Assembly: GCA_963820825.1 (NCBI GenBank)
Contig: CAWGBN010000008.1
Coordinates: 416,001 to 480,000 of the forward strand
Length of the DNA: 64,000 bases
Source of the DNA: Vulcanimicrobiota bacterium
GTDB taxonomy: Bacteria; Vulcanimicrobiota; Vulcanimicrobiia; Vulcanimicrobiales; Vulcanimicrobiaceae
Direction of reading: 5' to 3'
In this document: piece after piece, positions 37,101 to 40,100 of the stretch
How the letters are laid out: each line of letters opens with the position of its first letter
Position numbering within the stretch: position 1 is the stretch's first letter
Position numbers: made by a program

Positions 37101-40100
37101 GCGTATTCTGCAGATTGGCCGTCGGTGTCGTGTAGTCGATCCCCTCGAACTCATAGGCGGCCTCAAAAGCAAAGCCGCCCCGAATCGAGACCGTGCCGGT
37201 CTTATCGATCGTGACGCTGGGAATGCTGCGCAGCAGATCTTCCTCGCGCGCGTTGAACGATTTGCCCATCACCGTCTGAATCTGCGCGCCGGTCACCGTG
37301 TAAGTATCGATCGTCATCCCGTGCTGAAAGGCGCTCCCGGCACCGCGCGCATGGGTCGTCGCGATGATCTTGAGCGTCTTGGAGAGCGCCACCGGGATCG
37401 CTTGCTGCGAGCCGTTGAGCACGACCACGGTATTGGCGTAGGGCAGATACCCGCTGTGGGTCACCGAGAGCGAGTACGTGTCGGGCAGCACCGAGAGAAA
37501 GCGAAAGGTGCCCTTGGCGTCGGTGACCGTCTTATACGTGCCGCTGGGCGATTTGACCACCACCTGCGCACCTTCGATCGCCGCGTGACTCTTGTCGTCG
37601 CTGACCGTGCCCGAAATAATCCCGCCCGTCTCGGCGAGCACGCGTGCGTGGGATAGGGCCATGCAGCAGAACAGAAAAAAGAAGACGCGCTTCTTGACCC
37701 GGAGCAGGCTCTTGATCAAATTCGACTTCGACTCCCAGCAGCAACAAGAGTCTACGGTTCTACCGAAGCTCTCCATGCAAGATGCTAATCGTTAGCGGGT
37801 TATGGCTGCATCCCGGGAATGCGCGAATGGTTAAGGCATCGGCAACGCGACTTTATCGAATCATAAGGAAATTCGCCAAACCTTAATGTTCCTCGTTTTT
37901 CTGCGTGTCGGCGATCTGCCAGCGCGAACGTAAGCCGAGCCGCCCGAGAATCGAACTGACGTGCCGCTCGACGGTATGTTCGCTGATCTGCAAGGCCACG
38001 GCCACCTCGCGGTTGCGCGCGCCTCGACGAATCAACTGGGCGACCTGCTCCTCACGGCCCGTTAGCGTGGACCCGCTCGGGCGTCCACGCGGGCGCCGCT
38101 CGCCGGCCGGCTCTTGCGCCACGAGCAGCCGCATCGCTTCGTTCGTCCAACGGCGCAGACCCATCGCACTGAATGCTCGCGCGGCATCGCCGGCATCGTC
38201 GATCCAGCCGCCGCGTTCGCCCGATCGCGAAAAGAGATGGGCGCGCGCGAGCAGGTGGTGCGCGTGCAGATAGGGTCGAGCCGGGGCGATGACCGCCGCG
38301 AAAGCCTCGACCGCGAAGCGCGCTTCCTCGATATCGCCGCACTGTGCGGCAGTCGCGAAAAGCTCGACGGCGCTCGCCGCGCTATCTGCTTGGAAGAGCG
38401 CGCGGCGCAAAGCGATCGCGACGGGCGTTGGCGTTCCCGGACCCGGCGTCCGCGACCCGACGAGCACGGCCACCGTTGCCGCGATCGCGGACTCGGACAG
38501 ATCGCAGCGCAGCGCGGTATCGAGCATCCCGGGCGAGGTCCATTCGGGTAGCGCGGCGTCGTCGCCGAGCTCGACGGCAAGTTGCGCGCCCGTCGCTGCA
38601 AAGAGCGCGAGCTCTTCGGGCGAACGAGCGGCTGCGCGACCGCGCGCCACCAGAGCTTCGGCGCGCTCGAGGTCGCCCGCATCGAGCGCGAGCCCGGCCG
38701 CGGCCGCAACCGCGCGCAGCAGCCAACTCTGGAACCCATGCGCTTCGGCCAGGGCGATTGCGTCGTCGATCGACGTGCGCGCAAGGATCACGTCGCCGAA
38801 GAGCAACGCATGCTGCGCCAAACGTTCGCGTGCCGCGACAGCAAGGTGGAAGCGCCGCTGCGCCATCGCGCGGTCGTGGGCGGCCCGCAACGAGTCGAAG
38901 GTGCCGACGGGGCCGGCCGCCCACGCGAGCACGACACCGGCGACGATATGGTCTTCAGGGCTCGGCTCGAGGCTCGTCGCCCCATAGTAAGCAGCGACCT
39001 CGGCACCCGTTCGGCATGCAAGCAAGTCGGCATCGACGAATCGCGCCAGGCCGCGGTCGTCCCCCGCCAGCGCGCAGAGTGCCGCGCGCTCGCGTAGCGG
39101 CGCGCGGGCAAGCGTGAGCTCGGCCGAAGCTTCCCTCAGCCGGCATTGCGCGATTAAGCCGTCGATCTTCTGCTCATCGAAGATCATCAAAGCCTAATCT
39201 AGCAAGCGATTCTTAAGTGCCCATTATCCCTTCCGCTACGTCATCCTAAGGACGCGCATCCCGGCGCCCTTCGACTGCTCTCTGCGCTCGCGCTCTGGGT
39301 GACACATCTAGACGCGCTGCGCCCGGGCGACAAGGAGTTTGAACTGTGTCACGGCCACTACAAACGAGGCGCCGCATTACTGCGACGCCTCGTGCGTTTC
39401 GATGTGTCGACGACCTGATACGTTGCCGACGATATCACATCTGCAGCGACTTCGCAACGGCTTTGGTCCGTTCCGGCTGGAGCGCCCGGGAATCGAACCC
39501 GGAGCCGATCGGCGTATCAGATCGTCGGTCGACACCATCGAAGCGCCCCAGCCCATCTCATTCACGCGGTGAAGACGCAATGACAATGCGACGAAGGCGC
39601 GCTTCGATTAGCGCGCCTTCGCTCAAACGTCGCTCGTCCTTCGACACGCGCGCTCCGCGCGCGGCTCAGGATGACACATTTCAGAGCTACGGGATCAAGC
39701 GGAAGACCGTGCCGTAGTATTCGGCGGCGCCGCCCCAGAAGGTCGTTCCGTAGAGAACGCCGTTGACGTTTCGCAGACCCGCTTCGGGATTTGCACCGTT
39801 GGGATCGCCGCGGAAGCGATAGACGACGTGTTCGGTTCCGAAGTGGTCGGTGCGGAAGATCGTACCGCAGCGATAGTAGCCGTCCTTGCGAACGGCGCCC
39901 GACGAAATGCATTGGTTGGCCTTATGCGGACTATAACCGCCGCCGGTCGTCGTGCCGTAGAGCTGCCCGTTAACGTTGGAGAGGCCAGCAACGGGATATG
40001 CACCGTCGAGTTTAAAGCCGAAGCTATGGATCACGAGCTCGTGGCCTTGCGGCGTCATCTCGTAGATCGTTCCTCGCTCCTCCTCTCCGCCGCCGCGGGT

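Follow-up and report, generated by a model that had tools for sequence, protein, structure and literature searches.

A small RNA family of Vulcanimicrobiaceae with a tRNA-like cloverleaf and a mutually exclusive long-range helix

The predicted small RNA gene and its signals

The window, a 64-kb stretch of DNA, carries on its minus strand a predicted small RNA gene of about 190–200 nt flanked by two genes of the same strand (Table 1), at the place and in the orientation that an earlier note on this DNA had proposed. The source genome, whose assembly is 85% complete, has a single copy, scored at 212.4 bits by the covariance model R1 of the present analysis. The next-best R1 matches in this genome are the terminator of the element itself on the opposite strand (20.1 bits) and a tRNA-Gly (18.5 bits). 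ARAGORN calls a tRNA-??? at 39475-39550(-) with the 4-base anticodon ctga, as had been noted before. The minus strand folds at -106.3 kcal/mol (z = -5.4), a value equalled in none of 200 shuffles, and the plus strand likewise folds well (z = -4.8).

No family of Rfam 15 reaches its gathering cut-off for the element. Within the tRNA clan CL00001 (tRNA, tRNA-Sec) the best score is that of tRNA-Sec, 24.8 bits versus a cut-off of 47. This figure agrees with the earlier note, but tRNA-Sec is not the best match that the note took it for: isrJ (RF01393), covering the 3' half, outranks it as top sub-threshold match of the region (30.5 bits versus 37). The RNA family is absent from Rfam 15 and previously undescribed; search listings and the opening parts of abstracts on tRNA-like RNAs in Eremiobacterota, on bacterial tRNA-mimic small RNAs and alanyl-tRNA synthetase (AlaRS), and on YrlA/Rsr contain no description of it.

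Upstream of the gene lies a box whose pattern, TTGNNN-N14-16-GNGAN ending 5–14 nt 5' of the acceptor helix, is present in 41 of 75 copies versus a mean of 0.59 in 200 shuffles, and which is kept in both subfamilies. The earlier note had placed it upstream of all seven copies printed there. Its position and conservation suggest that it acts as a promoter; a simple consensus scan for sigma-70 promoters and terminators calls neither in the window copy, the same outcome as before. At the other end of the gene, all ten counted pairs of the terminator stem are changed on both sides (98.6% paired), and at least four U are found within 8 nt 3' of the stem in 67/77 copies. A promoter-like element and a GC-rich hairpin with its U tract, all on one strand, make up at the sequence level an intrinsically terminated small RNA gene, and the RNA is predicted to be transcribed independently from the minus strand. 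The gene is bracketed by two REP-like repeats which do not belong to the RNA family. They are the two matches of this repeat in the 64-kb window (0 expected), out of 32 in the genome.

Table 1. Features of the window copy and its surroundings (positions within the window).
Feature	Position	Strand	Basis and remarks
REP-like repeat, upstream of gene	39638..39675	minus	flanks window copy, outside RNA family
-35-like hexamer TTGTCA of promoter-like box	39581..39586	minus	sequence reading and family pattern
-10-like element, conserved box GTGAATGAG	39557..39565	minus	position and conservation; family consensus GNGAT-GGA
Small RNA gene (predicted)	39552-39360	minus	about 190–200 nt, 193 nt or so in the window copy; flanked by two same-strand genes
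tRNA-like cloverleaf, 77 nt	39476..39552	minus	ARAGORN and pair counts
Acceptor 5' strand	39552-39543	minus	7-bp tRNA-type stem from 39549
D arm	39541-39529	minus	4 bp, GG in loop
Variable anticodon-like arm	39528-39505	minus	7–8 bp, bulged; loop CUGAUAC at 39520-39514
T arm	39502-39486	minus	canonical; 5-bp stem
Acceptor 3' strand	39485-39476	minus	
Hairpin P2	39453..39475	minus	8 bp, variable loop, abuts acceptor helix; 8/8 pairs changed on both sides, 87.9% paired
Linker	39423..39452	minus	motifs GAAGUCG, GAUGUG, NUA and UCGG, invariant columns in alignment A1
Antisense ("anti-tRNA") segment	39395..39422	minus	covariation; part of MFE fold
Intrinsic terminator	39360..39392	minus	11-bp GC-rich stem, loop AGUAAU, then UUUGU
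REP-like repeat, downstream of gene	39268..39303	minus	same orientation as upstream repeat

Two mutually exclusive folds kept by compensatory change

Homologous copies were compared in alignment A2 (107 matches, 106 distinct rows) and, for an all-against-all covariation scan, in 77 full-length rows. The model behind A2 includes the cloverleaf and is free of the long-range helix described below, so that the alignment is not fitted to that helix. In A2, whose counts lean towards the cloverleaf because the model contains it, 40 of the 44 pairs of the whole cloverleaf are changed on both sides and 94.9% of cells are paired. None of 500 shuffles is as high, a control that overstates the case since the rows are kin, and slid controls give 36–47%. 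Both-sided changes affect 9/10 pairs of the acceptor helix, 7/7 of the variable arm (92.3% of cells paired) and 4/5 of the T arm, while the D stem passes from UCGA/UCGA to CCGC/GCGG in one homolog of the sister family. The acceptor helix is composed of a 7-bp tRNA-type stem and three further covarying pairs that join positions -1 to -3 with 73 to 75; its length is 10 bp and not the 8 bp previously given. The T loop UUCGAUU and the GG of the D loop, which in tRNA are the parts that make the elbow, are invariant in alignment A1. The element displays both the acceptor/T-arm stack and the T-loop/D-loop elbow elements of tRNA.

The remaining arm departs from this model. The 7-nt loop CUGAUAC described in the earlier note is correct as the sequence of the window copy, but the pair that closes it is unpaired in 13/18 copies, so that the loop is often of 9 nt. 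In the window copy the variable arm is imperfect, with one A:C mismatch, and the MFE structure of the 5' domain folded alone has neither D arm nor variable arm. A73 is followed in the gene by GCC and the chain runs on into hairpin P2, with no encoded CCA and no free 3' end. The element does not attain the tRNA gathering score, nor does it have a 5-bp anticodon stem with a 7-nt loop containing U33 and a readable triplet. The previous view that it is not a decoding tRNA holds: its 7–8-bp arm is bulged, its loop varies together with a 3' segment, and ARAGORN can fit it only with a 4-base anticodon.

A character of the acceptor stem that the earlier note did not contain is its alanine signature. 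The alanine identity rule is the G3:U70 wobble pair with A73. Among the 77 rows G3:U70 is found in 72, A73 in 76, G1:C72 in 73, G2:C71 in 75 and G4:C69 in 68, which together compose the full alanine set of the acceptor, and position -1 is a U in 67/77 copies. Among the 47 ARAGORN calls of the source genome, the combination GGGG...CUCC-A occurs only in three real tRNA-Ala genes; the tmRNA located with the Rfam model has it too. This identity set could have been inherited from a tRNA-Ala ancestor and have no present function.

The domain 3' of the cloverleaf starts with hairpin P2, whose pair 169/231 is G:U in 43 rows, and continues through the linker to a segment antisense to three parts of the cloverleaf: the loop, the variable arm (5' strand) and the D stem (3' strand). 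The loop is matched by GUAUCA of this segment, the arm by its variable part and the D-arm region by ACACAUCGAAAC. The long-range helix that results in A2 has 15 bp, all changed on both sides and 90.1% paired (slid controls 22–41%), and its extension onto the D-arm region is 85.3% paired with 4/11 pairs changed on both sides. The loop bases follow their distant partner, GAUAC/GUAUC being replaced by GACAC/GUGUC and GUCAC/GUGAC. Two other helices considered for the 3' domain were discarded: P3, which would join the 3' segment to the linker motif GAUGUG, is unconvincing with 83.4% paired versus 81.6% in shuffles, and in P4, a small hairpin with GUAUCA in its loop, only two pairs are well kept.

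The local variable arm and the long-range helix share one strand, so that they exclude each other. They are also the top pairs of the unbiased all-against-all scan of 77 copies. Each carries compensatory change (7/7 and 15/15 pairs, respectively), and covariation shows that the RNA has two mutually exclusive folds. These results uphold two central claims of the earlier note, namely the existence of exclusive helices and that of a new structured small RNA family in which a tRNA-like 5' domain precedes a 3' domain antisense to its D and anticodon-like arms.

The word bistable that was applied to this pair of folds, with its meaning of balanced states, is not sustained. Nearest-neighbour energies, computed with a model that includes neither tertiary contacts nor proteins, favour the long-range fold in 70/77 copies (median -10.9 kcal/mol), and MFE structures of full-length RNAs contain the long-range helix in 56/69 copies and the local arm in 0/69. 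Folding of the 5' domain alone yields the acceptor stem in 62/71 copies and the T arm in 56/71. With the long-range fold more stable by about 11 kcal/mol, the states are not balanced and the cloverleaf is, as computed, a metastable fold, one that would form first. Given the large gap in predicted stability, it might be short-lived.

Distribution of the family and readings of its role

The RNA is found in 42/71 sampled genomes of the home family and in 4/9 of a sister family of the same class. The earlier statement that it is confined to one family was slightly too narrow, the sister-family matches being true homologs. Matches in two other families (f20 and f13) correspond to real tRNA-Val/Asp/Phe clusters and were rejected as homologs. 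No match at E<=1e-6 is present in 29/71 home-family genomes (about 40%), so that the RNA is either dispensable or often unassembled. Several copies per genome, some in tandem, had been announced and are indeed observed: one genome has up to 10 matches, and in a relative (L068) five copies lie within 2.2 kb.

Several paralogs occupy conserved syntenic loci across genera and two families. The gene rlmN lies beside the RNA at 15/76 loci (3/3 checked against NCBIfam are RlmN), and other recurrent neighbours are glyQS, acyl-CoA dehydrogenase/sucC (10 loci), dus (2 loci) and a phosphoesterase (2 loci), the latter common to the home and sister families. Occurrence in two families and this shared neighbour support vertical inheritance as the probable mode of transmission. 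Conserved protein neighbours were considered as a clue to function and dismissed, as their arrangement is read as synteny among kin rather than operons: genes are convergent or divergent at the rlmN and acyl-CoA dehydrogenase/sucC loci, the downstream gene being convergent at those inspected. No co-occurring protein partner was found. The RNA provides a lineage-specific, multi-copy marker for a largely uncultured phylum; there, both tRNA-finding programs and covariance searches can fail to tell it from real tRNA clusters.

We consider that the RNA most likely mimics tRNA-Ala, or the tRNA-like domain of tmRNA, and masks itself. Judged from the energies and from 5'-to-3' synthesis, the cloverleaf would form first, and the long-range helix would later displace its D arm and variable arm together with the elbow. 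The open state could then be read by a protein that recognises an acceptor stem and elbow, AlaRS being the first candidate and RNase P, EF-Tu and SmpB the alternatives, while the closed state would be unreadable. Such a switch would act as a timer or be controlled by a factor that keeps the RNA in one state. Because the early fold closely mimics an alanine acceptor, these four proteins form a testable partner set. Note that the primary transcript itself is not chargeable, since its positions 73–75 are engaged in base pairs and P2 follows without a break. A more specific proposal, which we put forward tentatively, is that the family might represent riboregulators of a new class, each a tRNA-Ala or tmRNA-domain mimic whose own chain provides an antisense "lid". 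Such an RNA would offer its AlaRS- (or RNase P-, EF-Tu-, SmpB-) readable shape for a set time once synthesised, or while a factor lifts the lid, and would titrate or report alanine charging or ribosome rescue. Each paralog would have its private lid and arm, and lids would therefore not cross-react.

Other readings were weighed against this self-masking mimic. The element may be a precursor from which RNase P and a 3' endonuclease or exonuclease release the cloverleaf, to which CCA is added and which AlaRS charges. The non-decoding Ala-tRNA-like molecule would feed a non-ribosomal process, and the 3' trailer, which has the antisense segment, would switch it off by pairing in trans. The complete alanine identity set, the frequent U at -1 (67/77 copies) and the canonical T arm and elbow elements suit this scheme, as do positions 74–76, which are not CCA in several genuine CCA-less tRNA genes of the source genome either. 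It is nevertheless rather doubtful, as the three covarying pairs between -1 to -3 and 73 to 75 argue that the uncut helix matters. Moreover, the source genome at 85% completeness has no RNase Z above cut-off (best 39.1 bits versus 292.95), nor were FemAB or aminoacyl-phosphatidylglycerol synthase (LPG_synthase_C) domains, which would use Ala-tRNA, found in it. A trans-acting antisense regulator is also an unlikely solution. Here the variable segment or its 3' complement would be a seed with its own target for each paralog, and the cloverleaf would only serve stability or processing. The variable arm does differ between paralogs within conserved flanks (GUAUCA and ACACAUCGAAAC) and a genome can have up to 10 matches, but no other site for the 22-nt arm, the 26-nt antisense segment or the 28-nt linker exists at up to 3 mismatches on both strands of the source genome (85% complete), by a search blind to short seeds. 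This leaves unsupported the "specificity code" that had been read in the arm. Free variation of stem sequence is expected of any conserved helix, and two intramolecular partners binding the variable bases sufficiently explain the pattern.

The earlier note had itself raised a DNA-level alternative, an inverted repeat of a mobile element. In the form weighed here the repeat would be MITE-like, mobile or prone to recombination, and would stem from a tRNA gene, its complementarity serving DNA hairpins or recombinase binding. Tandem arrays, truncated copies, the two direct REP-like repeats around the window copy and the folding of the plus strand (z = -4.8) are features that such an element could have. 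It is very improbable in view of the conserved G:U and U:G pairs, which become A:C mismatches on the other strand or in DNA hairpins, of the strand specificity of terminator U tracts and promoter box, and of the synteny of several copies across genera and two families; furthermore, a REP-like repeat lies within 400 nt of only 7/88 copies and no transposase or integrase was detected among the 144 nearest neighbours scanned. Exclusive helices beside an intrinsic terminator are the classic attenuator layout, and in the window a same-strand LuxR-type gene starts downstream at 39190, an arrangement that would suit a cis-acting leader choosing between termination and read-through. This reading is scarcely credible because neither alternative helix overlaps the terminator stem and because the convergent downstream gene at the inspected conserved loci (rlmN, acyl-CoA dehydrogenase) leaves nothing to read into. 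Next to no probability is given to the idea of a tRNA-Ala pseudogene in decay, devoid of function of its own, that a terminator happens to follow: failure of all tRNA model thresholds and the ARAGORN fit with a 4-base anticodon would be natural for such a relic, but compensatory change in six helices, the conserved promoter box and a 3' domain kept across two families are incompatible with neutral decay.

Comparison with known RNAs

The element shares with tRNA-Ala (CL00001) a 7-bp acceptor stem, a 5-bp T stem, the T loop UUCGAUU, the D-loop GG and an acceptor identity set equal to that of the three tRNA-Ala genes of the source genome. It differs by its bulged anticodon-like arm of 7–8 bp, with a 7–9-nt loop whose bases vary and pair elsewhere, and by connectors of 1, 0 and 2 nt where a standard tRNA has 2, 1 and 4–5 nt. 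In addition, the element lacks CCA or a free 3' end, its positions 73–75 being paired with -1 to -3, and about 115 nt more follow the cloverleaf, including the segment antisense to it.

The tRNA-like domain of tmRNA (RF00023) has likewise a G3:U70 acceptor that starts with GGGGC and ends with CUCCA. The D-loop analogue is in both cases GG followed by UCGAC (GGUUCGAC in the tmRNA of the source genome, GGUGUCGAC in the element), and each is encoded by a small RNA gene that has transcription signals of its own, predicted ones in the case of the element. In the element, unlike in tmRNA, the T arm and the 3' acceptor strand are found in the middle of the RNA and not at its 3' end. An unsystematic look at the window copy revealed no candidate tag frame, and the only tmRNA-type Rfam match, tmRNA_permuted (RF04321), scores 12.9 bits versus 47 and covers the T arm alone. 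That the element replaces tmRNA was envisaged and rejected: ARAGORN finds no tmRNA in the source genome, but the Rfam model finds a canonical one (C7:205945-206298, 112.8 bits) with a normal tag, ...ANHEYALAA, and canonical tmRNA is present in 57/61 sampled genomes of the family.

The sub-threshold match of the 3' half to isrJ (RF01393, 30.5 bits) is largely due to the terminator hairpin and a short repeated UCGUCG, and isrJ has no tRNA-like domain. A parallel in folding is offered by hok, a toxin mRNA controlled by antisense RNA and 3' processing, in which metastable 5' hairpins are replaced by long-range 5'–3' pairing with "coupled covariations". In hok as in the element one strand is complementary to two partners across homologs, and an early local fold gives way to a more stable long-range helix; the element differs in having no coding frame and in that its early fold is a tRNA mimic. 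To our knowledge few natural RNAs have comparative support for two exclusive folds, and such RNAs are valued as models for the study of RNA switching and of folding during transcription.

The long helix of YrlA is reportedly formed by its 5' and 3' ends, binds Ro60 (Rsr) and coexists with a tRNA-like module, whereas that of the element competes with it. No gene for Ro60 (TROVE) was found in the source genome (85% complete), and the Rfam scan of the element region gave no match to Y-RNA families even at E<=10. YrlA and other bacterial Y RNAs that mimic tRNA are non-coding RNAs with a tRNA-like module including a T arm (PMC4201824); the element resembles YrlA in joining such a module to a long helix of distant segments. 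If its mimicry proves functional, the RNA of Vulcanimicrobiaceae would join tmRNA and YrlA as a third type of tRNA mimic in bacteria, and the first of them with a self-masking domain.

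Locus and anatomy of the element

The element is a predicted small RNA gene of ~193 nt (window 39552-39360, minus strand) that lies in a 500-nt gap between two minus-strand ORFs. It is composed of a tRNA-like cloverleaf and an antisense 3' segment, with the hairpin P2 and a linker between them and a GC-rich hairpin at its end. The region 39552-39340 has a fold energy of -106.3 kcal/mol (z = -5.4), and ARAGORN calls an odd tRNA with a 4-base anticodon at 39475-39550 (minus strand). A search of Rfam 15 at E ≤ 10 gave six matches on the element, none at its cut-off.

Features of the element and its surroundings, with Rfam 15 matches (window positions)
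Feature	Position	Strand	Bits (cut-off)
ORF with receiver domain, CheR_N and first part of CheR	41222..42154	minus	
ORF with remainder of CheR	40798..41412	minus	
ORF, GloVer-repeat "choice-of-anchor" protein	39687..40958	minus	
REP-like elements GTCAYCCNGAGC...GTCGAAGG, two direct copies bracketing the gene	39268-39303, 39638-39675	minus	
-35-like TTGTCA	39586-39581	minus	
Promoter-like box GTGAATGAG	39565-39557	minus	
Acceptor helix, 10 bp	39552-39543 with 39485-39476	minus	
D stem, 4 bp, loop UGGUG	one nt after acceptor 5' strand	minus	
Arm of 7-8 bp, one bulged base, loop CUGAUAC	directly 3' of D stem	minus	
T arm CCGGG-UUCGAUU-CCCGG	two nt after variable arm	minus	
Hairpin P2 (8 bp)	abuts acceptor helix	minus	
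Linker with conserved motifs, 30 nt		minus	
Antisense segment	39422-39395	minus	
GC-rich hairpin, 11 bp, then UUUGU	ends ~39360	minus	
ORF with C-terminal LuxR/GerE domain	37883..39190	minus	
isrJ match	element's 3' half		30.5 (37)
tRNA-Sec match			24.8 (47)
mascRNA match			22.2 (42.5)
tmRNA_permuted match			12.9 (47)

A simple consensus scan called neither a promoter nor a terminator in the window copy. Across the family, the promoter-like pattern is present in 41/75 copies (shuffles: 0.6), and 67/77 have a U tract 3' of the terminal hairpin. The promoter-like box is found also in a diverged subfamily (80-110 bits) and in f3, the sister family within the same class. Many high-scoring copies, single ones included, carry a conserved module of ~70 nt just 5' of the -35-like hexamer (GCGCCTTYGGYTG...AGTTGCCCGCA...GGA..A.TCGAAC at locus L033, ~1704-1800, minus strand; also upstream of copies in L034, L040, L045, L046, L048, L050, L054 and L068). 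This module has hairpin-forming stretches inside; the window copy has a degenerate form of it, and none was seen with copies of the diverged subfamily. A regulator site is one possibility, a separate RNA another.

Three further observations concern the window. A perfect 10-bp GC-rich hairpin, GAAGGCGCGC-UAAUCGAA-GCGCGCCUUC (39593-39620, minus strand), follows the upstream ORF and precedes the promoter-like box; it probably terminates transcription of the upstream gene. A CheR methyltransferase is split over two overlapping minus-strand ORFs (40798-42154), which could reflect a frameshift or an assembly error. The 90-nt tRNA-Gly(ccc) called by ARAGORN at 21553-21642 (plus strand) has no canonical T loop in its sequence and looks like a false call within other sequence.

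Family extent and covariation of two exclusive helices

Comparison of the copies shows that the minus strand carries a conserved small RNA gene whose 5' part has a tRNA-Ala-like fold and whose 3' segment can take the place of half of this fold. It is a real, new RNA family whose structural claim is solid. In listings and abstract openings of the literature on tRNA-like and tRNA-mimic bacterial RNAs, no description of the element was found. A blastn search with a 261-nt query matched 29/81 genomes of its home family, Vulcanimicrobiaceae. Alignment A1 was made of 18 of the 19 full-length matches (the copy of genome G079, which is without the 5' acceptor strand, was omitted) and served to build the covariance model R1, whose structure is the cloverleaf, P2 and terminator. 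R1 identifies a single true copy in G000, the genome of the window (212.4 bits); the next matches there are the element's own terminator on the other strand (20.1 bits) and a tRNA-Gly (18.5 bits). At E ≤ 1e-3, 84/151 family genomes match, weak partial matches counted. In a phylum-wide sample, R1 at E ≤ 1e-6 matches 42/71 genomes of the home family, 4/9 of f3, 5/16 of family f20, 1/6 of family f13 and none of the remaining 48 (17 further families). The f3 matches are true homologs, and ARAGORN calls none of them as tRNA; those of f20 and f13 were ruled out as homologs, the matches of all six genomes sitting on real tRNA-Val/Asp/Phe clusters. Note that the tallies partly include genomes flagged unpublished (G008, G019, G021, G028, G029, G041, G051, G100, G109 and G134), which were never the sole basis of any conclusion.

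The larger alignment A2 draws on 76 loci, whose 107 cmsearch matches give 106 distinct rows. The set of cloverleaf, P2 and terminator helices has 94.9% of its cells paired and both-side changes in 40/44 pairs; slid controls give 36-47% and 0/500 shuffles are as high, a statistic that is overstated because the rows are relatives. Within this set the variable arm shows both-side changes in 7/7 pairs (92.3% paired). The long-range helix, formed by the 5' strand and loop of the arm with the 3' segment, has both-side changes in 15/15 pairs and 90.1% paired (slid controls 22-41%), and the part that extends onto the D-arm region shows little variation (4/11 pairs, 85.3% paired). Since A2 was fitted to R1, which has the local arm and not the long-range helix, the long-range result is independent of the alignment model. 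A scan of all column pairs, blind to both proposed helices and run on the 77 full-length distinct rows (at least 175 nt) among A2 rows 1-88, has among its top-scoring pairs 29-50, 31-48 and 33-45 of the local arm and 31-144, 35-140, 32-143 and 40-135 of the long-range helix, beside which rank pairs of the T arm, acceptor stem, P2 and terminator. The loop covaries with the 3' segment (GAUAC/GUAUC to GACAC/GUGUC). In f3 the D stem, arm, loop and antisense segment have all changed yet are still complementary, with 20 contiguous pairs at loci L115 and L117. The many independent pair types and this compensation across families do not rely on shuffles.

The f3 homologs have an additional hairpin 3' of P2 (L114 2600-2640, L115 2601-2628, L117 2549-2576). 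Its loop (e.g. ACAGGUCUGA) is complementary to the variable-arm 5' strand and loop of the same copy and changes with the arm; it is a second "anti" sequence, displayed in a loop, and could nucleate the switch.

The alanine signature and predicted folding

With the tRNA-type acceptor stem defined as the 7 pairs adjoining the T stem, the 77 rows have G1:C72 in 73, G2:C71 in 75, G3:U70 in 72, G4:C69 in 68 and A73 in 76; the seventh pair varies freely (C:G 34, U:A 27, U:G 14). That this wobble pair stays fixed next to a freely covarying neighbour points to selection for the G:U as such. G3:U70 together with A73 is what AlaRS reads as its identity mark, on minihelices and tmRNA as well. Among the ARAGORN calls of G000, GGGG...CUCC-A is common to the three real tRNA-Ala genes only; the G000 tmRNA has the same, and its D-loop analogue GGUUCGAC is similar to GGUGUCGAC of the element. 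The primary transcript is not chargeable because A73, G74 and C75 pair with U-1, C-2 and G-3. All three pairs covary, the outermost being G:C, G:U or C:G and the next one C:G, U:A, G:C or U:G.

When each helix was enforced in turn, in an energy model without tertiary contacts or proteins, the long-range state was more stable in 70/77 copies (median -10.9 kcal/mol). Folding of the 5' domain by itself recovers the acceptor stem in 62/71 copies, the T arm in 56/71, the D arm in 32/68 and the variable arm in 32/69; full-length folding gives the long-range helix in 56/69 and the local arm in 0/69. The cloverleaf is read as the first-forming fold since it is complete once 80 nt are made; the more stable long helix would follow. 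Because the acceptor helix crosses the long helix as a pseudoknot, nested folding is silent on whether they coexist.

We infer a self-masking mimic of the alanine acceptor, a reading testable at the bench. In the open form, the elbow and the acceptor identity would be accessible to a protein that reads tRNA, with AlaRS as first candidate and RNase P, EF-Tu and SmpB also possible. In the closed form the GG of the D loop and the arm would be removed and hence the elbow lost.

Genomic setting, alternative readings and known systems

A Pfam scan of the nearest ORFs covered 76 loci and 144 proteins. A radical-SAM gene adjoins the RNA at 15 loci (3/3 tested against NCBIfam are RlmN), one upstream neighbour at these loci being glycine-tRNA ligase (GlyRS), and dus adjoins it at 2. 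At the rlmN loci inspected (e.g. L031) gene pairs are convergent, the RNA terminator facing the rlmN end. The diverged subfamily is found at 10 loci between a convergent acyl-CoA dehydrogenase gene and a divergent sucC, which at L090 is ~50 nt from the RNA start. A divergent phosphoesterase (PF04185) gene is the neighbour both at L041 (home family) and at L114 (f3). This distribution is read as several old paralogs that were vertically inherited at fixed loci and locally underwent tandem duplication and decay; the RNA is therefore not a leader of the downstream gene. Synteny among relatives alone does not allow these neighbours to be assigned as partners, even though tRNA is a target of RlmN, Dus and GlyRS alike.

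Truncated copies lacking the cloverleaf were found in arrays (L068 2827-2989 and 3093-3248, L085 2495-2636, L025 1492-1665, L039 1316-1449), some of them tandem. They retain P2, linker, antisense segment and terminator, and may be either products of decay or free "lids" that could act in trans. The window copy is at none of the recurrent loci (rlmN, acyl-CoA dehydrogenase/sucC, dus, phosphoesterase). The 64-kb window has no REP-like matches besides the two that bracket this copy; the genome of 3 Mb has 32, a density that predicts ~0.7 per 64 kb, and such a repeat is within 400 nt of only 7/88 copies elsewhere; the pair may mark the route of this copy to a non-syntenic locus.

Other readings were weighed. 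The RNA could be a precursor that is cut, receives CCA and is charged, a possible model weakened by the covariation of the leader-trailer pairs and by the failure to find an RNase Z (above its cut-off), FemAB or aminoacyl-lipid synthase in G000 (85% complete). The conserved G:U pairs contradict a DNA-level element, which the earlier note had considered, and so do the strand-specific signals. That note had also likened the varying arm to a "specificity code", for which no target of at least 22 nt was found in G000. Membership of the tRNA, tmRNA, Y-RNA and isrJ families is rejected on family models or defining features.

A tmRNA replacement is ruled out, the Rfam tmRNA model locating a G000 tmRNA at contig C7:205945-206298 (112.8 bits); a match above cut-off is present in 57/61 sampled family genomes. 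ARAGORN missed this gene (0 tmRNA genes reported). Its T loop is GGCGGUA, the usual one being UUCGAnn, and this may explain the miss.

As a self-masking mimic, the element would work like known tRNA mimics, namely the tRNA-like domain of tmRNA, YrlA and viral tRNA-like structures. In folding logic it is similar to hok mRNA, in which long-range pairing supplants a metastable local fold and a single strand has two covarying partners.
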